NCBI GenBank assembly: GCA_027728805.1
Contig: JAQBTN010000003.1
Span: forward strand, 2,107 to 66,106
Direction: 5' to 3'
Length of the DNA stretch: 64,000 nt
Origin: Actinomycetota bacterium
GTDB taxonomy: Bacteria; Actinomycetota; Actinomycetes; Mycobacteriales; Mycobacteriaceae
Shown here: positions 27,262 through 37,226 of the stretch, in pieces
Layout of the letters: every line of letters starts with the position of its first letter
Position numbering within the stretch: the stretch's first letter is position 1
The notes under the pieces: generated by a model
What the model was told of the DNA's origin: nothing
Seen by the model: only the letters and a program-made list of their open reading frames with translations
Databases searched by the model: none
Made by a program: the position numbers and the translations under genes

Positions 27262-30162
<2,901 letters not shown>

Positions 30163-30207: not shown

Positions 30208-30885
30208 ATGACAGTCGTCGACGACACTTACACCGGTCATGTGGAGTCCCAGACCGCAGCGCGGCGCACCCTGCCGGGGGTGAGCATCATCAAGATGTCG
30301 GTGGGCCCGATGGATAACAACGCCTACCTGCTGACCTGTGCGAAGACCGGCGAGTCACTTCTGATCGACGCCGCCAACGACCCCGCGCTGCTGGTGGATC
30401 TGGTGGCCGAACAGGCGCCGAAACTGGAGTTGATCGTGACCACCCACCAACATATGGATCACTGGCTGGCGCTGGAGGCGGTCGCGGAATCGACCGGTGC
30501 CCCCACCGCTGCCCACCCACTCGACGCCGACGCGCTGCCGGTCAAGCCTGCCCGGTTGCTGGCCGGCGGCGAGGTGCTCGAGGTCGGGGATCTCACCTTC
30601 GACGTCATCCACCTGCGTGGGCACACCCCCGGTTCGGTGGCGCTGGCATTGCGGCCCGCCGGCGAGCGGACCGCGGTGCAGTTGTTCACCGGGGACTGCC
30701 TGTTCCCCGGCGGTCCGGGGCGGACGACAACGCCGGAGGAGTTCGATTCACTGATGACCGGCCTGGAGACCTGGGTGTTCGACGTGTACGGGGATGACAC
30801 TGTCGTCTATCCGGGACACGGCGATGACACCACCCTCGGCGAGGAGCGGCCCCGACTGGCTGAGTGGCGCGAGCGAGGTTGGTAA
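30208..30885 (+). CDS. MBL-fold metallo-hydrolase, glyoxalase II-like (Rv1637c-like)
   Basis: THQHMDH, GHTPGS, TGDCLFPGG, YPGHG metal motifs; TAACGT -10 seven nt before ATG. Confidence 0.93.
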   Translation: MTVVDDTYTGHVESQTAARRTLPGVSIIKMSVGPMDNNAYLLTCAKTGESLLIDAANDPALLVDLVAEQAPKLELIVTTHQHMDHWLALEAVAESTGAPTAAHPLDADALPVKPARLLAGGEVLEVGDLTFDVIHLRGHTPGSVALALRPAGERTAVQLFTGDCLFPGGPGRTTTPEEFDSLMTGLETWVFDVYGDDTVVYPGHGDDTTLGEERPRLAEWRERGW

Positions 30886-30934
30886 CCGCGCTCAATACAG
30901 CTCCCTGGTCGGCTTCGCTGCCTAGGATTCGGGC

Positions 30935-31975
30935 GTGATCAAGGAATCTCGGGCCGTTGGTATCCACGAGCACGGCGATGCCGACGCCCTCGTGAACGGC
31001 ACGGTCGAGGTGGGAGCGCCGGGCCAGAGCGAGGTGGTGGTACGAACCAGTGCTCTCGGGGTCAATCCGGCGGACATCTACTTCCGGTCAACCCCGTGGG
31101 AGGAAATCGCGCAGTCGTTGCCTAAGCAGATTCCTTCTTCGGGATCGCTGCGAGTCGTGGGGGCCGACTTCGCCGGGGCCATCGAATCCGTCGGCACCGA
31201 AGTCCGTGGCTGGTCGGTCGGCGATGAGGTTTTCGGCTCGGCCTCGGCGATGGCCGCGACTGGGGCATCGAGCGAGTACATCGTCGTCGATGCCCGACTC
31301 CTCGCCCCTCTCCCGAAGGCCCTAAGCCCAGACCGGGCGGTGGCCTGGCCGATGGTTGGAATCACCGCGTGGGAGTCGCTGTTCGATGTCCTAAGGATCA
31401 GAACGGACGGAGCCGACAGCGGGGCTTCCTTGTTGGTCATCGGTGCTACCGGCGGAACCGGTTCGGCGGCAGTCCAACTGGGCAAGACACTGGCTGGCGT
31501 TTCTGTGACCGCAACGGCAGGTTCGGAGTCCGGCAGATCGTGGTGCTTAAGTCTCGGTGCCGACGCAGTCGTGGATCACCGCAGGCCGCTGACAGACCAA
31601 TTGCCGGACAGCACCTTCGACTTCATCGTGTGCTGTTCGTCGGCAGCGACTTACCTTGACACCATGTCGCAACTGATCGCGCCGTTCGGTCACATTTGTG
31701 CGGTCATGGCCGATCTCGATCCGGTGCCTTTCGGCGGTCTGCGCCTGCGCTCGGCCAGCTTCGGGATGGAGTTCATGGGCCTGCGTTCGATGGGGCCGCA
31801 GATAGAGAAGCACGGCGCGATCCTCACCCAGATTTCGCATCTCATCGACGAGGGTCGGCTCGCCGACCTCTCTGCCCAGCGGCTCAGCCCCATCAATGCC
31901 GACACCCTGCGTCGCGCCCACAGACTGGTCGAACAGGGCGGCCAAGGCAAAGTGACGATCTCGCAATGGCTGTAG
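30935..31975 (+). CDS. MDR-family NADPH:quinone oxidoreductase / zinc-type alcohol dehydrogenase-like protein
   Basis: GVNPAD, GADFAG, ITAWESLFD, IGATGGTGS; no Zn-binding Cys/His set; TAGGAT -10 six nt before GTG. Confidence 0.88.
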   Translation: MIKESRAVGIHEHGDADALVNGTVEVGAPGQSEVVVRTSALGVNPADIYFRSTPWEEIAQSLPKQIPSSGSLRVVGADFAGAIESVGTEVRGWSVGDEVFGSASAMAATGASSEYIVVDARLLAPLPKALSPDRAVAWPMVGITAWESLFDVLRIRTDGADSGASLLVIGATGGTGSAAVQLGKTLAGVSVTATAGSESGRSWCLSLGADAVVDHRRPLTDQLPDSTFDFIVCCSSAATYLDTMSQLIAPFGHICAVMADLDPVPFGGLRLRSASFGMEFMGLRSMGPQIEKHGAILTQISHLIDEGRLADLSAQRLSPINADTLRRAHRLVEQGGQGKVTISQWL

Positions 31976-32000
31976 GAACACCGGTCACCAGCGACCCCCG

Positions 32001-32184
32001 GTTCCCGGGCGGCCCTGGGCGGACAACAAATCCGGCGGAGTTCGACTCACTCATGACCGGCTTGGAGACCGAGGTGTTCGGGGTCTACGGCGACGACACC
32101 GTCGCCTACCCGGGTCATGGCGACGACACCACGTTGGGCGAAGAGCGGCCTCGGCTCGCGGAGTGGCGCGAGCGCGGCTGGTGA
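32001..32184 (+). repeat. MBL 3'-end copy 1 (type A, intact frame, 60 codons)
   Basis: FPGGPGRTTNPAEFDSLMTGLETEVFGVYGDDTVAYPGHGDDTTLGEERPRLAEWRERGW, 55/60 aa identical to the active C-terminus. Confidence 0.97.
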
Positions 32185-32939
32185 TCGCCCGACGGGTGTT
32201 CGACGCGCACCTGCACATCATCGACCCCCAGTTCCCGTTACAGGAGAACAACGGCTACCTGCCGCCGAAGTTCACCGTCGATGACTACCTCAACTGCATC
32301 GCGCACCTCGGCATCAAGGGCGGTGCTGTCGTCTCCGGCTCGTTCCAGGGCTTCGACCAAACCTACCTCCAAGCGGCACTGGCTGCGCTGGGGCCGACGT
32401 TCGTCGGAGTCACTCAAATTCCCCACGAGACAGCCGACGCCGAGATTCAACGCCTGGACTCAGTCGGCGTGCGTGCAGTCCGATTCAACGTCCGCCGGGG
32501 CGGCTCCGCCGACCTGGGCCACCTTGATCGCCTCGCCCGCCGTGTCCACGAGATTGCAGGCTGGCACGTCGAGCTTTACATCGACTCCCGCCAACTGCCC
32601 GATCTGCACGCAACCTTGTCGAAGCTACCTGCGGTGGCCATCGACCACCTGGGCTTGAGTTCTGAGGGACTCCCGCACCTCCTTCGCCTCGTCGAGGTAG
32701 GCGCGAGGGTGAAAGCCACCGGGTTCGGACGGATTGACCTAGACCCCGCCGACGCGATGCGTCGCATCCTCGACATCAACCGCCATGCCCTCGTCGTGGG
32801 CACCGATCTTCCTTCAACCCGCGCGCCACGACCGTTCAGCGACGACGACCTCACCTCGCTCGCCGACTTCCTTGACCCTCGGGAATTGGAGGACACACTC
32901 TGGAACAACGCAGCCACGCTCTACCGGCTGGATCAGTGA
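32181..32939 (+). CDS. Amidohydrolase family protein (Amidohydro_2, 2-pyrone-4,6-dicarboxylate lactonase-like)
   Basis: FDAHLH, AVRFN, IDHLG, GTDLPSTRA; GTG overlaps the TGA of copy 1. Confidence 0.88.
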   Translation: MIARRVFDAHLHIIDPQFPLQENNGYLPPKFTVDDYLNCIAHLGIKGGAVVSGSFQGFDQTYLQAALAALGPTFVGVTQIPHETADAEIQRLDSVGVRAVRFNVRRGGSADLGHLDRLARRVHEIAGWHVELYIDSRQLPDLHATLSKLPAVAIDHLGLSSEGLPHLLRLVEVGARVKATGFGRIDLDPADAMRRILDINRHALVVGTDLPSTRAPRPFSDDDLTSLADFLDPRELEDTLWNNAATLYRLDQ

Positions 32940-32952
32940 CTAGCGATTCCCG

Positions 32953-33136
32953 GTTCCCCGGCGGCGTCGGAAAGACCTGGGAGGAAGGCGGTTTCGAGCA
33001 ACTGCTGGGCGACGTGTCCAGCCGGCTGTTCGATGCCTACGGTGATGACACCGTCGTCTACCCGGGCCACGGCGACGACACCACCCTGGGCGCGGAGCGT
33101 CCACACCTGGCGCAGTGGCGCGAGCGCGGCTGGTAG
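32953..33136 (+). repeat. MBL 3'-end copy 2 (type B, intact frame; ORF 32936-33136)
   Basis: FPGGVGKTWEEGGFEQLLGDVSSRLFDAYGDDTVVYPGHGDDTTLGAERPHLAQWRERGW. Confidence 0.97.
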
Positions 33137-33217
33137 CAACCCGTCAGCGGCGCGAGCTTGCGGCGGTCTGAGCCAGCCCCTCGACGAATAAAGAGAGACT
33201 CACCGGCGTCAGTCCGA

Positions 33218-33505
33218 TCACCCGATAGGTGGTCCCGCGGGAATAACCAGACCGCCCCCCGCCGTGACTACGGGGCCACCGTCGAGCGCCGGAGCGACGG
33301 CAATTTGGGGTGGCCCGCCGTCGGCTGGCACTACGACGTCACCGGGCTGGTAGCCGCCGTCACCAGAGTTCATCATGCAATCAAGAGAGGTCGGGTCAAA
33401 CATGCAGTCGTCGGCAAGGCTGGTCGGTGCTAGTGCAACTCCGACCAATGGCAGTGCGGCAAGCGTGAGACCGGCGGCCACACGGCGGTAACGGGAGGTA
33501 TTCAT
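33218..33505 (-). CDS. Small secreted hypothetical protein, 95 aa
   Basis: Signal peptide ending SLA-DD, two Cys, Gly/Pro-rich; TATCAT -10 six nt before ATG. Confidence 0.75.
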   Translation of the reverse strand: MNTSRYRRVAAGLTLAALPLVGVALAPTSLADDCMFDPTSLDCMMNSGDGGYQPGDVVVPADGGPPQIAVAPALDGGPVVTAGGGLVIPAGPPIG

Positions 33506-33620
33506 ATTCAGATGATAGGGGCTGTGACCTGCTCGGGAGCGGGGTTCGCAGATGACGCAACATGGTCGAGTCGAAGTCGTCGGCCGTGAAACACGCTGTG
33601 GTGGAGGTGGTGCCGCTGGC

Positions 33621-35051
33621 CTAAACGATCAGTTCGAAGTCAGGCAGGCTGAAGGTCTTGTCGAAGAACGGTTGCAAAGGCGCATAGAGGCGGAAGTAGA
33701 CGAACCAGCCGTCATCGCCGGTGGTTTTCATGTAGTTCTTCTCGAAACCCTCAGGCGCCTTGGCGCCGACATAGAGATCGACGCTGCCGTCGGGGTTCTT
33801 GACGAGATCCGGTAGGCGGCTGTCCAGGTTTGCGCTGCGGATGTCGGTGCCGCCGTTGTCGTAGGGGCGGCGGGTGTTCTCGCTGTAGAGGGTCAGCGCC
33901 CAGAACTGGCCCACCGGAACGTCTTTGGGGACCTGGAGCCGGTAGGTCTTGTCGGCACGCAGCAGATTGCCCTTGTTGTCGCGTTTGGTGGTCATGTACA
34001 CCTGTCCCGCGCCGACCGTCGGGTTGACCATGCCTGTGCTGGAGCCCACCGCCTCGTAGAACCAGGTGACCCGCTCGTCGAGTTCGAGGCGGGTGTCGGT
34101 CTCCTGCTCGAGGGAGAAATCGAAGCTCTTGTACCAGGACGTGCCGGGCCAGTACGGCTCGGCGAATCGGGGATTGACCTGGAGGTTGCGCGCCATCAAC
34201 TCGCCCATCGCCGCTCCCTTGAGCAGGATGCTTCGTTGGCGCGCGTCGGGGTCGAATGTCTTGCCCTTGTCGATACCCAGCGGCAGCAGCATCGCCATCC
34301 AGGTCTTGTCCACCGGCCGAACCGGCTCGGTATTTACGACAGCGGCCAGCGTGCGCCAGTAGTCAAGGCCGCGCGGTGCGGTTGCGCTCCACTCGACGTC
34401 TTTGTCCTCGATGAACCGCGAGGTCGCCAGCGGCTGGCCGACCCGGCCCATTTTCATCGTCAACTTGAACGAGTCGTAGTAGGACGGGTCCTTGTCGAGG
34501 ATGCGCAGCAGCACGCCGATGTTGTTCGTCGCGCTCTGGCGCACGTAGTAACCGGGCCGATCGAAGGTCGCGGGGTTCTCCTCGGGGCCGACGATGATGT
34601 ACTTGCCGCCCTTGCCCTGATCTGGACCGGTCAGACCGAGATCGGCGACCGGACGTTGCCAGAAGTCCATGACACCGCCAGCGGTCTGCCCGGCTGGGTA
34701 CTCGATCTCCAGTGGCCCGTTCTTGAGGCTGATGAAGTTGAAGATGTAGGGCGTGGTGAGGTTGGCCGTGACGATCCCGCGCTTCTCCTTCAAGGAGCGC
34801 AGCACGACGAAATCGGTCTCCCCGGTGACGCCGTAGGCCTCGGCCTGCCGGTCGCGCCAGGTGGTCACGCTGACCAGCGGAGTGCTCCACAAGTAGCACT
34901 GAGCGGCCCGTTGGTAGTCCATCTCGTCGTAAAGCCGCTTGGCGGCATCGTCGTCGAAATAATTGTCGACCAGCGTGATATCACCGACCGGGGTCGAGAT
35001 GACTTCCTTCCCGTGCAGTGTGGCCTTCTCAAGCGGTATCCCCTGCGTCAT
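33621..35051 (-). CDS. DUF1254/DUF1214 domain-containing protein
   Basis: TANLTTPY, DFWQRP..DLG..GPD.G.GG, FWALTLY, NPDGSVDLY, YFRLYAP; start uncertain (35051 or 35096). Confidence 0.85.
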   Translation of the reverse strand: MTQGIPLEKATLHGKEVISTPVGDITLVDNYFDDDAAKRLYDEMDYQRAAQCYLWSTPLVSVTTWRDRQAEAYGVTGETDFVVLRSLKEKRGIVTANLTTPYIFNFISLKNGPLEIEYPAGQTAGGVMDFWQRPVADLGLTGPDQGKGGKYIIVGPEENPATFDRPGYYVRQSATNNIGVLLRILDKDPSYYDSFKLTMKMGRVGQPLATSRFIEDKDVEWSATAPRGLDYWRTLAAVVNTEPVRPVDKTWMAMLLPLGIDKGKTFDPDARQRSILLKGAAMGELMARNLQVNPRFAEPYWPGTSWYKSFDFSLEQETDTRLELDERVTWFYEAVGSSTGMVNPTVGAGQVYMTTKRDNKGNLLRADKTYRLQVPKDVPVGQFWALTLYSENTRRPYDNGGTDIRSANLDSRLPDLVKNPDGSVDLYVGAKAPEGFEKNYMKTTGDDGWFVYFRLYAPLQPFFDKTFSLPDFELIV

Positions 35052-35161
35052 CGCCACCCTACTTCGGATTGTCTGCTGTTTGCTGGTCGCGTTCATTTCT
35101 ACCGCATTGCCCTGCTTCGGATCGAAGGGAATCCATTTCCCAGGTTGCGAGCTGACTTCGG

Positions 35162-35246
35162 GTTCCCCGGCGTGACTGGGCGGAGAACAACGCCCGATGA
35201 GTTCGATTCGTTGATGACCGGACTGGAGAGTCGGGTGTTCGGGGTC
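35162..35246 (+). repeat. MBL 3'-end copy 3 (type A, truncated after about 28 codons)
   Basis: FPGVTGRRTTPDEFDSLMTGLESRVFGV, then similarity is lost. Confidence 0.9.
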
Positions 35247-35447
35247 TCGGGAGCCTTTGAGGACGACGCTCACTGATCACCCTGGCAGTCGACTGATCAC
35301 CGGGGATCCGGTTCCAGCCTCGCTCCGGTGGTCCATGGACGCAGCCACCAACTCAAGGAAACATGGCTTGTGTCTATTCGGCATTTCAGCGCCGCCCAGA
35401 CTCTGCGTCGACCCAGACACGGAAACTGCGAGTCTTGGGAGAAAACA

Positions 35448-35807: not shown

Positions 35808-35885
35808 GTGCCGGGGGCATCGGAAAGACCTGAGAGCCAGTGGGTTTCGAGCAGCTGCTCGGCGGTTTATCCAGCCGGCTGTTCG
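35808..35885 (+). repeat. MBL 3'-end copy 4 (type B, truncated, in-frame TGA replacing TGG)
   Basis: GIGKT*EPVGFEQLLGGLSSRLF vs copy 2 GVGKTWEEGGFEQLLGDVSSRLF. Confidence 0.88.
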
Positions 35886-36011
35886 CATCTGCGGAAGTGG
35901 CGCCGGTGCGGCTGGTGGACCTCGGTGGCACCCCCTATCGGGGTGAGGGACTGTGCCCTGCTTGATGGCGCATTTGAGTCGGCGGCGGACCGTTCGCTGT
36001 TAACGTAAGTG

Positions 36012-36482
36012 ATGCCCATCTCACGGCGGCATGCGCCGATAGTGTTCAGTGCTTTGATCGCCCTCGTCGTCCTGTCAGGTTGTGGCGCGCAGGATGCCAA
36101 ACCAGGGCAGGTATCTTCGCCACAGTCCGCCTCAGCAGCGAGTACGTCAGCCCCCGCGGGGAGTCCGGAGGGGGTCAAGGTTTCCGCTGCCGACCTGCCG
36201 GCAATCGTTGCGAACCGAACTTACCGCGGCAGTTCGGACGGGATGCCGTACTCCGAGTACTACGCGGCTGATGGCTCGTTGCGGGGAATCAGCGATGGGG
36301 AGGCTTATTCCGGCAGTTGGAAAGTTGTCGAGGACAAGCTTTGCTTCACTTACCCCACGGCCGACGCCAGCGAAATCGAGTGCTACGCCGTGTTTAAAAA
36401 GGGCGACTCCCTGACCTGGATCGATTCCAACGGGCGGGTAGTCCAGACCAGTTACGTCGAGGGTAACCCCGACGGCCTCTAG
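36012..36482 (+). CDS. Lipoprotein with DUF995-like C-terminal domain
   Basis: Lipobox LSG-C; YSEYYAADG...YSGSWKVVEDKLCFTY; TAACGT -10 just upstream. Confidence 0.8.
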   Translation: MPISRRHAPIVFSALIALVVLSGCGAQDAKPGQVSSPQSASAASTSAPAGSPEGVKVSAADLPAIVANRTYRGSSDGMPYSEYYAADGSLRGISDGEAYSGSWKVVEDKLCFTYPTADASEIECYAVFKKGDSLTWIDSNGRVVQTSYVEGNPDGL

Positions 36483-36553
36483 GTTTCCGACTCCTGGTCG
36501 CGGCGCAAACGAACAGATTCAGAACATCACGGCGACGGAAGGAAACGGCAGTC

Positions 36554-36973
36554 ATGGCCCAACGTCCCTACACCTCATGGAACGACGCGATCATCGCCGA
36601 GTTCCGGGCAAATGAAGGCAAGGTAGGCGGGCCGTTCGAGGGTGCGACCCTGCTGCTGCTGCACACCACCGGAGCCAAATCGGGTCAGCAGCGGATCAGT
36701 CCGGTGATGGCCTTCGAGTTCGATGACAAGCTGATCGTCGTGGGCTCCTATGCCGGTGCTGACGTTCATCCCGCCTGGCTGCACAACCTTCGCGCGAACC
36801 CGCATGCCCACATCGAGATCGGCGCCGACGCCTACGACGTGCAGGCCCGGGAGATGGAGTCCGACGAACGCGACGCCACCTTCGCCCGCATCGTGGCGCA
36901 GGCACCCGGATTCGCCGGTTACCAGTTGGCCACCGAACGGGTGATCCCCGTCGTCGAACTGCGGCGCCTCTGA
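36554..36973 (+). CDS. Deazaflavin (F420)-dependent nitroreductase family protein (Ddn-like)
   Basis: IIAEFRANEGKVGG, LLHTTGAKSGQQR, HPAWLHNLRANP, RVIPVV. Confidence 0.92.
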   Translation: MAQRPYTSWNDAIIAEFRANEGKVGGPFEGATLLLLHTTGAKSGQQRISPVMAFEFDDKLIVVGSYAGADVHPAWLHNLRANPHAHIEIGADAYDVQAREMESDERDATFARIVAQAPGFAGYQLATERVIPVVELRRL

Positions 36974-36974
36974 G

Positions 36975-37226
36975 TTGCGGTACCCCGGGGAAGGACCGAG
37001 AAGCCAGTCGGCTGCCGTCGCGGCCAAGCCTGTCGAGCAACTGCCCCGGGGGCCTTACCCGGCGTCGGCGGCAACGATCTGGGCGATCGCCGTATTGACC
37101 TTGCTGATCGGGCTGACGCTCGCAGTGCTCGTCCCCGCCGCCCTCTCGTCCGGCGATGCCCCGCGCGAAACTCCCGGCGTGCAAAGCAGTCTCGGCACTG
37201 ACGGCCCCGACGGCGGGAACCGATGA
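36975..37226 (+). CDS. Small membrane protein whose N-terminus overlaps a decayed MBL copy
   Basis: TTG start; one TM helix; TGA overlaps the ATG of the PrsW gene. Confidence 0.45.
   Translation: MRYPGEGPRSQSAAVAAKPVEQLPRGPYPASAATIWAIAVLTLLIGLTLAVLVPAALSSGDAPRETPGVQSSLGTDGPDGGNR
36978..37044 (+). repeat. MBL 3'-end copy 5 (type B, heavily decayed)
   Basis: CGGTACCCCGG core; GGAAGGACCGAGAAGCCAGTCGG vs copy 4 GGAAAGACCTGAGAGCCAGTGGG; TCGAGCAACTGC identical to copy 2. Confidence 0.6.

Follow-up and report, generated by a model that had tools for sequence, protein, structure and literature searches.

The 60 codons at 32002-32181 of the window, the 64,000-nt stretch of Actinomycetota DNA analysed here, are supported as a C-terminus that once worked in the MBL-fold hydrolase encoded next to uvrA. 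This displaced tail (A1) lies in a tandem of at least four units behind the hydrolase gene (the current tail A0 with an oxidoreductase gene, A1 with an amidohydrolase gene, tail B2, and two decayed remnants). The newest unit adjoins the hydrolase gene, and the array runs newest-first. We consider it probable that the site as a whole works as an attachment site, at which tail-bearing mobile DNA inserts at an 11-bp core and displaces the old hydrolase tails.

Tail copies and cargo genes in the window

The hydrolase gene, its left neighbour and the array behind it comprise the following features:

27262..30162, minus strand: uvrA, a 966-aa open reading frame (ORF); conserved gene on the left, transcribed away from the hydrolase gene
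30208..30885, plus strand: active MBL-fold hydrolase gene, 225 aa, consisting of the 5' part and the current tail A0
30685..30713, plus strand: attachment region in the active gene, with host left arm TTCACCGGGGACTGCCTG (30685-30702) and core TTCCCCGGCGG (30703-30713)
30703..30885, plus strand: tail A0, type A, the working C-terminus (codon comparison, tail tree)
30935..31975, plus strand: cargo 1, zinc-type alcohol dehydrogenase / quinone oxidoreductase (Pfam ADH_N, ADH_zinc_N)
31984..32184, plus strand: displaced site 1, with host-like left arm GTCACCAGCGACCCCCGG, core, and intact type-A tail A1 with its stop
32181..32939, plus strand: cargo 2, Amidohydro_2 family hydrolase (Pfam PF04909, E 2e-22)
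32936..33136, plus strand: displaced site 2, with left arm GTGACTAGCGATTCCCGG, core, and intact type-B tail B2
33218-33505, minus strand: small open reading frame
33621 to about 35100 (ORF open to 35273), minus strand: DUF1254/DUF1214 protein gene (Pfam PF06863, PF06742)
35154..35252, plus strand: partial tail A3, type A, the first ~30 codons, with core TTCCCCGGCGT (tblastn E 3e-10, match 35163-35252)
35811..35916, plus strand: decayed tail B4, type B, with TGG changed to TGA and a deletion of ~66 nt
36009..36973, plus strand: lipoprotein-like ORF and F420H2-dependent quinone reductase (Pfam PF04075, E 9e-36)

Repeat searches and tblastn found five tail copies in the window, all on the plus strand. 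The active copy matched at 30691-30882 and the two complete displaced copies at 31993-32181 (E 1e-34) and 32945-33133 (E 2e-23), a repetition far above chance level. No further tail copies were found elsewhere in the 4.03-Mb genome, where the remaining matches are two distant paralogues. A3 is 81% identical to A0 across 88 nt, and B4 is 83% identical to B2 across 75 nt and has in addition a 36-nt match to the tail end. The lipoprotein-like ORF and the quinone reductase are positioned between B4 and a candidate fifth tail remnant at 36989-37044; this candidate consists of two weak collinear matches that are not significant (E 0.04-0.3), and it was rejected. Units in the window measure 0.95-1.3 kb.

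The hydrolase has a whole-domain match to the Pfam profile Lactamase_B (PF00753; residues 33-204 of 225, E 3e-14), scoring 53.9 bits against a curated cut-off of 22.7 bits, which places it among the MBL-fold proteins. Its orthologue is present in 382 of the 401 genomes of the genus, and the uvrA-MBL synteny is retained across related loci and metagenome contigs. All units are joined by the 11-bp core TTCCCSGGCGG, which encodes the residues FPGG and in the hydrolase gene is preceded by the host arm TTCACCGGNGACTGCCTG. The core is invariant at 81 active sites and at 25 of 25 displaced sites selected by regular expression, the latter figure being partly circular because the core pattern was the selection criterion. 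A Xer/dif-like 11-6-11 site was also considered and rejected: its arms are symmetric at 7 of 11 positions, but its "spacer" is no more variable than the arms.

Several parts of the array recur at other loci. The oxidoreductase cargo is found, at ~91% amino acid identity, in the L036 and L049 arrays, and L060 has it in pseudogene form; A0 shares its last bases (GGTTGGTAA) and the next 50-nt spacer with L060, where they also stand upstream of the oxidoreductase cargo. Positions 33202-33555 are 95% identical to a stretch within the L027 array. B2 is probably the native tail of the window's lineage: in the tail tree it clusters with the displaced tails at the ends of the L038 and L032 arrays, and in the single-tail relative L047 a type B tail is followed directly by the DUF1254/DUF1214 gene seen in the window. 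Displaced type A tails are internal, and displaced type B tails are mostly terminal.

Codon constraint and descent of the displaced tails

The sequence-only reading had counted 24 synonymous and 5 non-synonymous codon differences between A0 (30703-30882) and A1 (32002-32181) over 60 codons; a script reproduced these counts exactly and confirmed that neither an indel nor a stop separates the two tails. They differ at 33 nucleotides (81.7% identity). The Nei-Gojobori method counts 25.0 differences at 45.2 synonymous sites and 8.0 at 134.8 non-synonymous sites, giving dS 1.005, dN 0.062 and omega 0.062 (Fisher p = 5.5e-12 and binomial p = 1.5e-9 for the bias). This value is far from 1 and bears out the purifying selection proposed from the manual count. 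Active-versus-active tail pairs across genomes have a similar omega of 0.03-0.05, and young within-array pairs have values of 0.95 (L052), 0.30 (L028), 0.26 (L036) and 0.19 (L037). Since A0 and A1 resemble active pairs and not recent within-array duplicates, most of their divergence arose under constraint. For B2, omega against its relatives is relaxed (0.14-0.23).

In a maximum-likelihood tree of 102 tails, type A tails form a single clade (support 98/86). The sister of A0 is the active tail of L024, the closest genome (100/98). A1 clusters with the active tails of L032 and L028 (100/80) and is 90% identical in nucleotides to that of L032, so that the copies do not group together as local paralogues and A1 is nearest to foreign active tails. 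A single clade of the three complete window copies was rejected (AU p 0.003); a sister pairing of A0 and A1 alone was not rejected over the 180 columns available (AU p 0.16, delta lnL 28). Comparison of tails with 5' parts over 80 related loci, a check proposed along with the codon count, revealed strong discordance: on a tree built from the 5' 483 nt the type A loci lie scattered, a minimum of 8 changes being required by the starred branches, and tail type differs within four well-supported sister pairs.

Omega, the tail tree and the discordance thus support the view that the tails diverged while functional in different lineages and were later joined by insertion. Insertion of tail-carrying mobile DNA is directly visible at the same site in other species. 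The idea of one tail from one lineage is too simple, because recombination has occurred within tails and the last bases of A0 match the L060 tail.

An alternative is that the tails are paralogues of this genome, made by local duplication, still translated as small peptides and under continuing selection. Such translation would fit an in-frame ATG at 31967 and a GTG at 32936, which open 72- and 66-codon ORFs overlapping the preceding stops, and an open frame is kept in 17 of 22 near-complete displaced tails. The position of A1 in the tree and the rejected three-copy clade speak against this alternative, as do the drift of young within-array pairs (omega 0.19-0.95) and the decay of older copies, with a stop and deletions, and a frameshift in M. 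szulgai. We regard it as very improbable; it appears largely refuted by the tree and the decay series.

Phages and arrays at the hydrolase core

The core TTCCCSGGCGG is the attachment site of serine-integrase phages of subcluster K5 (Larva, Kratio, Collard). In these phages a 60-codon type-A tail begins at the core, 19 nt from the serine integrase, and the phage tails nest inside the type-A clade that contains A0 and A1. M. moriokaense has canonical attL/attR at the hydrolase core, in the order attL, 10.6 kb, an integrase 80% identical, phage arm and native type B tail, so that here the integrase lies beside the displaced fragment as in a K5-type element. Two accreted units are present in M. 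agri, and IMG/VR holds further integrase phages at the same core; the arm of one of them, L126, is partly host-like. The core is common to attP, attL/attR and all sites of the window, consistent with crossover at the core by elements that bear their own tail.

No recombinase was found by Pfam among the ORFs of the window's array, and the genome contains no K5-family integrase, the best relative being 33% identical and located on contig C30. Genome scans with PF00589 and PF00239 showed no integrase beside the array; PF00589 matched two Xer-like genes, one of them on C171, and also a fragment beyond the window, ~36 kb downstream of the array. The same held for tblastn searches of all loci with Larva gp39 and the six recombinases of the genome, which gave no array-side integrase, for ~35 cargo proteins and 120 downstream ORFs of 27 array loci, which gave no recombinase by Pfam, and for 12 array-bearing genomes, in which no K5 integrase was found. 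Each phage record carried one tail, and none had captured a unit.

It is possible that each unit is a plain scar, left by a K5-type prophage that entered by attP x attB integration and was later stripped of its integrase and nearly all its genes by deletion. Scars of this kind would agree with the phage arm ...CCTACGGTA that precedes displaced tails in M. moriokaense, M. agri and ENV421, with the intact or truncated integrase in M. moriokaense and M. agri, and with the placement of the window's type A tails in the clade of the phage tails. In the window, however, the left arms of displaced sites 1 and 2 (W_1, W_2) agree with the host arm at 13 and 11 of 18 positions and with the phage arm at 2/18 (null mean 5, 99.9th percentile 12), the phage left arm (...GAGAGCCTACGGTA) is absent before the displaced fragments, and upstream of A1 or B2 there are neither phage arms nor integrase fragments. 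Moreover, the cargo is metabolic, lies 0-25 nt from the junction and is apparently translationally coupled to the tail, and more than 20 independent deletions would have to end just beyond an 18-nt arm. We therefore consider scarring an improbable origin for these units.

Arrays are present at 26 of the 80 closest Mycobacterium loci, and at least two strong tail matches were obtained in about 31 of 400 genomes of the genus. The carriers include the isolates M. szulgai, Mycobacterium sp. ENV421 and M. agri, as well as two complete genomes. In M. szulgai DSM 44166 the array reads A tail, SnoaL, junction, B tail. A metagenome junction scan yielded four more arrays, each in uvrA-MBL context and none on a plasmid or phage contig; a plasmid search with the tail recovered full-length MBL genes alone. 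The strict junction pattern GTCACCGGCGACCCCCGGTTCCC had 3 true matches among the 400 genomes (G000, G279, G079), and the junction family that it defines is, as far as these sequences indicate, restricted to the window's clade. Of 28 displaced left arms, 19 resemble the host arm, and homology begins at -17/-18. One locus, L052, was considered as an independent same-boundary duplication; gene conversion explains it equally well, and it was not counted.

The cargo includes P450s, amidohydrolases, oxidoreductases, regulators and transporters, begins 0-25 nt from the junction, and is on the opposite strand in a quarter to a third of cases. In the window, the GTG start of cargo 2 overlaps the TGA stop of tail A1 as GTGA, and such start/stop overlaps suggest that cargo may be expressed by read-through from the hydrolase gene. 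Literature searches found no paper that describes the site or mycobacterial arrays of this kind.

The units are delimited by the core, where shared cassettes both start and finish. A PepSY_TM unit shared by L037 and L039 is 95% identical from -4 to +10 of two cores, and the oxidoreductase unit shared by the window and L049 stops at +10, to be followed by a type A tail in the window and L060 and by a type B tail in L049 and L036. Likewise, an ACT gene stands behind a type B tail in L046 and L051 and behind type A in L024, L026 and G279. Some tails are chimeric, with breaks near +66 in L034_0 and L027_0 and at the 3' end in A0. As tail and cargo are unlinked in places and some tails are chimeric, homologous recombination also shapes the arrays. 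Nine arrays have type B tails exclusively.

Homologous recombination might even account for the arrays by itself, and it is the main rival to cis-mobilisation, which we favour. The 215-bp tail module would then be a portable stretch of homology: RecA would loop out units between modules, entry would follow conjugal transfer, transduction or uptake, through a single crossover in the tail or a double-crossover segment swap, and the fixed left boundary at -18 would stem from one founder duplication kept uniform by gene conversion. Consistent with this, there are breakpoints within the chimeric tails and the end of A0 equals that of L060_0, ACT occurs behind both tail types, no recombinase is near any array, and same-array tails are often mutual closest relatives (L052, L075, L036, L037, L028), as gene conversion predicts. 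The junction arms also have derived states in common (G at -18, CCCCGG at -6..-1), which suggests a shared origin. In two different units, however, the left arm stays with the upstream cargo while the right tail switches between A and B; with the arm constant left of the core and the tail switching right of it, the A/B break is confined within ~11 bp. The longest A-B homology sits in the C-terminal half, away from the core, several distinct junction families begin where the host half-site has its outer edge, at -16 to -18, and the core is a proven integrase crossover point. These points leave recombination alone a rather unlikely explanation, more credible nonetheless than phage scars.

Candidate mechanism and comparison with known systems

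In the attachment-site model, mobile DNA would recombine into the host arm and 11-bp core within the hydrolase gene, each incoming unit bringing its own copy of the last 60 codons immediately after the core. The hydrolase would remain intact because the incoming unit supplies a replacement tail, and the previous tail, with whatever came after it, would be shifted downstream at each insertion. The units lack an integrase and have boundary sites containing the core that autonomous integrase phages share, and they may be cis-mobilisable passengers of K5-type phages, a proposal to which we give somewhat under even chances. Each unit junction would combine a host-type left arm with a type-A tail, and so be attL-like; because of this, a phage integrated at one site could excise via another, carrying the unit to a new host; there the phage could leave through the inner site, depositing a unit that has neither integrase nor phage arm. 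This attL-like logic does not account for the nine arrays with B tails only.

More tentatively, the arrays could represent an integron-like cassette system built on a phage attachment site in environmental mycobacteria, although we think this rather doubtful. Each single-gene unit would bear a host-type arm, the core and a phage-type replacement tail, and would be expressed via read-through or translational coupling from the housekeeping hydrolase gene. Serine-integrase phages would shuttle the units between species, excising through alternative attL-like sites, and the type-A tail would be doubly shaped, by enzyme function and by its role as the phage-side recombination arm.

Taken with the phylogeny, dN/dS shows the C-terminus of a housekeeping enzyme to be an exchangeable module that moves between mycobacterial species, and displaced gene ends can be dated and traced to their source like fossils. 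The unexplained small "hydrolase" ORF of K5 mycobacteriophages is linked to a function, that of supplying the new end for the gene in which the phage integrates. The hotspot, present in a third of the closest relatives, accumulates single accessory genes with no recombinase of its own. If the units are mobile in trans, they would form a cassette system in a phylum that reportedly lacks classical integrons, and would provide naturally occurring attL-like sites on which the directionality of serine integrases, which are genome-engineering tools, could be studied.

Tail swapping at a phage site is a known kind of event; its compact, integrase-less form is unusual. The K5 phages (Kratiovirus: Larva, Kratio, Collard, Edugator, AlleyCat) use the same target gene and 11-bp core as the window and carry an integrase-adjacent type-A tail, whereas the window has neither integrase nor phage arm, and has metabolic cargo and units of 0.95-1.3 kb. 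Integron cassettes likewise form arrays of mostly single, promoterless-looking genes beside a fixed site, newest first, with diverse accessory cargo. Unlike integrons, the window lacks IntI, its repeated site is a coding gene end, and a quarter to a third of cargo is on the opposite strand; the PF00589 scan of the genome gave no IntI tyrosine integrase with adjacent attI and Pc.

Islands at tRNA and tmRNA genes (Islander, PMC4383910) likewise regenerate their target, their ends are marked by the displaced 3' fragment, and repeated use of a single site likewise yields tandem arrays. Here, in contrast, the target is a protein gene whose restored 180 nt are under protein-level selection, the recombinase family at the site is a serine and not a tyrosine integrase, and the units are integrase-less. 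Cis-mobilisable elements and ICEs or IMEs that move by accretion-mobilisation (reviewed in PMC5704250) likewise involve integrase-less, att-bounded units accreting in tandem at the site of an autonomous element, with excision through the outer site proposed for mobilisation. Those systems are tyrosine-integrase ICEs of streptococci, whereas the window's units are single-gene and have hybrid sites of host arm and phage tail, through which they may be mobilised. SCC and ccr-less pseudo-SCC elements at the 3' end of rlmH in staphylococci (PMC13739063) share a large-serine-recombinase site, an intact target gene, and tandem units, many of them recombinase-less, between direct repeats with the integration sequence; they differ in their unrelated recombinase lineage and host, in a repeat of ~15-20 bp against a 215-bp coding module, and in much larger units.

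Displacement of rhs and polymorphic toxin C-termini (PMC2935791) resembles the hydrolase arrays in that a new end with a downstream gene displaces the old one, and orphan ends remain with short upstream homology. The ends displaced there are toxins of differing function, accompanied by immunity genes and subject to diversifying selection, whereas the hydrolase ends are equivalent and conserved (omega 0.03-0.06), with two types in all; the tails are homologous, and the cargo behind them is metabolic or regulatory.

Tandem gene ends behind the hydrolase gene

The MBL-fold hydrolase gene adjoining uvrA is followed in the window by an array of small integrase-less units, each composed of a copy of the last 60 codons of the gene (the tail) and its cargo. 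The array holds five gene-end copies (A0, A1, B2, A3 and B4), all on the same strand, with A0 forming the active end of the gene. The tails are of two types, A (FPGGPGRTT...FDSLMTGLE) and B (FPGGVGKTWE...FEQLLGDV), and every copy opens with the 11-bp core TTCCCSGGCGG (codons FPGG). The ~18 nt preceding displaced copies, GTCACCAGCGACCCCCGG and GTGACTAGCGATTCCCGG, resemble the gene's own upstream TTCACCGGGGACTGCCTG, denoted here the host arm. In the rest of the genome (4.03 Mb, 273 contigs) we found two distant paralogues only, and no further tail copy.

Features of the array and its surroundings, by window position
27262-30162, minus strand: uvrA
30208-30885, plus strand: MBL-fold hydrolase, whose C-terminus is tail A0
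30935-31975, plus strand: zinc-type oxidoreductase
31993-32184, plus strand: displaced tail A1 (repeat/tblastn copy)
32181-32939, plus strand: Amidohydro_2 gene, its GTG overlapping the TGA of A1
32945-33136, plus strand: displaced tail B2 (repeat/tblastn copy)
33218-35273, minus strand: small ORF and DUF1254/DUF1214 gene
35154-35252, plus strand: partial tail A3
between A3 and B4: about 560 nt with no recognisable feature
35811-35916, plus strand: tail B4, decayed (TGA, ~66-nt deletion)
36009-36973, plus strand: lipoprotein-like ORF and F420H2-dependent quinone reductase
37223 onward: PrsW and cation-efflux gene

In-frame starts (ATG 31967; GTG 32936) overlapping the preceding cargo stops open the intact displaced tails A1 and B2 into ORFs of 72 codons (31967-32184) and 66 codons (32936-33136); these overlaps may be chance in a G+C-rich genome. 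A tyrosine-recombinase fragment (C259:70345-70746, a 183-aa open frame at the contig end) lies ~36 kb downstream of the array, about 4 kb past the window end, with no visible link to the array.

The source organism belongs to Mycobacterium sensu lato, and its named relatives are Mycobacterium/Mycolicibacterium MAGs and isolates. Among the 80 closest loci, 26 have 2-5 tail copies downstream of the gene, almost always in its own orientation. Arrays are present in isolates (M. szulgai DSM 44166, Mycobacterium sp. ENV421, M. agri) and in complete genomes (G279, G011); about 31 genomes of a 400-genome genus sample have at least two strong tail matches, and metagenome contigs yielded four more arrays, with uvrA adjoining in every case. 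Between tails lie one or two accessory genes as cargo, including ACT-domain, SnoaL-like, second MBL, ArsR + CDF, PNPOx-like, amidohydrolase, MarR + alpha/beta hydrolase, P450, SRPBCC, solute-binding protein, PepSY_TM, enoyl-CoA hydratase, HxlR, arginase family, GT2, MFS, PAS-SpoIIE, linalool-dehydratase-like, DUF347 and choloylglycine hydrolase genes; no recombinase was found among the cargo. Several cargo genes have starts overlapping tail stops, as GTGA (amidohydrolase in the window, SnoaL in M. szulgai) or TGATG (ACT in genomes G063 and G279).

One cargo gene, at L040:10687-11379 (minus strand; the same as L023 of G377), encodes another MBL-fold hydrolase, unrelated to the target and directly behind the target's tail. 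At L018:3090-4300 (G236) the tail is followed by an ACT gene broken after its first ~25 codons, the order being ACT start, a minus-strand choloylglycine-hydrolase gene, and a 3' half-tail fused to mid-ACT, which is a compound rearrangement. In the complete genome G011, whose array is all type B including the active tail, a minus-strand gene for a secreted beta-propeller-like protein of 454 aa lies between two decayed type B remnants (L013:4990-6520).

Integrated islands are classically recognised by a target that has been restored and a fragment of it that has been displaced (PMC4383910). The arrays resemble ccr-less SCC at rlmH (PMC13739063) in having tandem integrase-less units at a site for a serine recombinase within the end of a gene, and rhs (PMC2935791) in the displacement of gene ends. 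We found no paper on this attachment site.

Divergence and phylogeny of the tails

A0 (30703-30882) and A1 (32002-32181) align codon for codon with 33 nucleotide differences (81.7% identity). The sequence-only reading had counted 24 synonymous versus 5 non-synonymous codon differences, with no indel or stop, and had deduced purifying selection; we reproduced the counts, and the formal test that it had proposed bears the deduction out (Nei-Gojobori dS 1.005, dN 0.062, omega 0.062; Fisher p 5.5e-12). This omega is at the level of active tails compared across genomes (0.036 between A0 and its counterpart in L024, the closest genome; 0.030 between those of loci L032 and L028), as is that of displaced A1 against the active tail of L032 (0.050). 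Recent within-array duplicates drift instead, with omega of 0.95 in L052, 0.30 between the first two displaced tails of L028, 0.26 in L036 and 0.19 in L037.

The tail tree places A1 with the active tails of L032 and L028 (support 100/80), A0 with that of L024 (100/98), and B2 with the displaced tails that end the arrays of L038 and L032. The expectation that the copies are not one local clade held for all three together (AU p 0.003 against a single A0+A1+B2 clade), but not for A0 and A1 alone, whose sister grouping was not rejected (AU p 0.16, delta lnL 28) because only 180 columns are available. Type A is one clade (98/86), and mapping it on the tree of the gene's 5' part (the first 483 nt) requires 15 changes, of which starred branches force 8 or more; 5' sisters with unlike tail types are L037/L039, L028/L046, L025/L054, and L042 versus L071 and L073. 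Omega, tree placement and this discordance together show that tails are exchangeable modules. They also support the earlier proposal that the tails diverged while functional in different lineages and were then joined, and the conclusion that A1 was once a working C-terminus.

Serine-integrase phages at the same core

Searching phage genomes with the tail (tblastn) matched subcluster K5 mycobacteriophages. In Larva, Kratio and Collard a 60-codon type A tail begins at TTCCCGGGCGG, an opposite-strand serine integrase starts 19 nt away, and the phage-side arm is GGTATTCACRGCTGAGAGCCTACGGTA. The annotated 43-residue 'hydrolase' of these phages (Larva gp38, L104:3501-3689) is the downstream part of the 60-codon frame from the core; the gp38 ORF is a replacement end for the host MBL gene, not a phage enzyme. 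The integrated form is seen in M. moriokaense DSM 44221, where a type A tail completes the gene. Behind it lie 10.6 kb with one phage-type gene and then, in this order, an integrase sharing 80% identity with Larva gp39 (Resolvase and Recombinase domains), the phage arm, the core and the native type B tail. In M. agri two units have accreted, and they end in a truncated integrase, the phage arm and a type B tail. IMG/VR contains more phages with a type A tail at the same core beside distant serine integrases (45% and 38% identity), as well as prophage contigs starting inside the hydrolase gene. The phage tails nest in the type A clade, sister to a 20-row clade containing A0 and A1. Type A is thus the tail lineage of mobile elements, with type B the one usual on chromosomes.

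Among the 28 displaced left arms, those of M. moriokaense and ENV421 and two from M. agri, four in all, match the phage arm. The host arm is matched by 19, the window's two included, at 10-16 of 18 positions (null mean 5, 99.9th percentile 12), and the resemblance of these 19 to the phage arm is no better than chance. TTCAC lies at -18..-14 in the host arm and host-type junctions and at -23..-19 in the K5 phage arm, where two other phages have TTCAG and TTAGC. In serine-integrase sites, a 5-bp outward shift distinguishes attP from attB half-sites. Read by this general architecture, a junction with a type A tail would be attL-like and one with a type B tail attB-like. Within arrays, type A tails that have been displaced occupy internal positions, and type B tails are terminal in 10 of 13 cases. 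A K5-type integrase was found neither in the window's genome nor in 12 array-bearing genomes; together with the host-type arms, this absence does not fit a plain phage scar.

One phage-like contig (L126:4380-4640, IMGVR_UViG_3300014325_000011) encodes a serine integrase 38% identical to Larva gp39, and the arm to the left of its core, GGACACTGCCTG, differs little from the host arm (codons GHCL versus GDCL). Element-borne sites with host-like arms therefore exist.

Movement of units and history of the window's array

Homology of displaced sites to the gene starts at -17/-18. A PepSY_TM unit common to L037 and L039 is 95% identical from -4 of one core to +10 of the next, past which the tail is type A in L037 and type B in L039. 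The window's oxidoreductase unit recurs in L049, L036 and L060 (about 91% amino acid identity) and its junction arm moves along; the tail after its core is type A in the window and L060, type B in L049 and L036. Other units recur at different array positions (L028/L037, L028/L060, L032/L035, L038/L041), with identity continuous from core through tail to cargo.

We tentatively propose, as a possibility somewhat short of even, that serine-integrase phages move these units by accretion-mobilisation, as described for cis-mobilisable elements (PMC5704250). A phage would integrate at one site of an array, excise through another attL-like site carrying the intervening unit along, and integrate via attP in the next host; later excision through the inner site would leave tail, cargo and a host-type junction before the resident tail. 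Such a route would explain the absent integrase and phage arm, the joints at the core, the type A tails on units, the half-site-length arms and the newest-first polarity. The main rival, homologous recombination between 215-bp modules, certainly occurs at arrays, and we consider it unlikely as the explanation of unit movement. Its marks are chimeric tails (the active tails of L034 and L027 break near +66; A0 is mostly like that of L024, with its last bases and 50-nt spacer being those accompanying the oxidoreductase in L060), the frequent homogenisation of tails within one array, and ACT cargo behind either tail type. Phage logic likewise fails to account for nine arrays with type B tails only.

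B2 is probably the window's native tail, since the single-tail relative L047 has that same DUF1254/DUF1214 gene right after a type B tail; the constraint on B2 is also relaxed (omega 0.14-0.23). Ahead of it stand A1 with the amidohydrolase and A0 with the oxidoreductase. A3 and B4 are older debris, and a further remnant near 37000 is doubtful. L024, at a 5' dS of 0.22 to the window, has A0 in common but not the cargo, its tail being followed by ACT and then straight by PrsW, which indicates that turnover is fast relative to species divergence.
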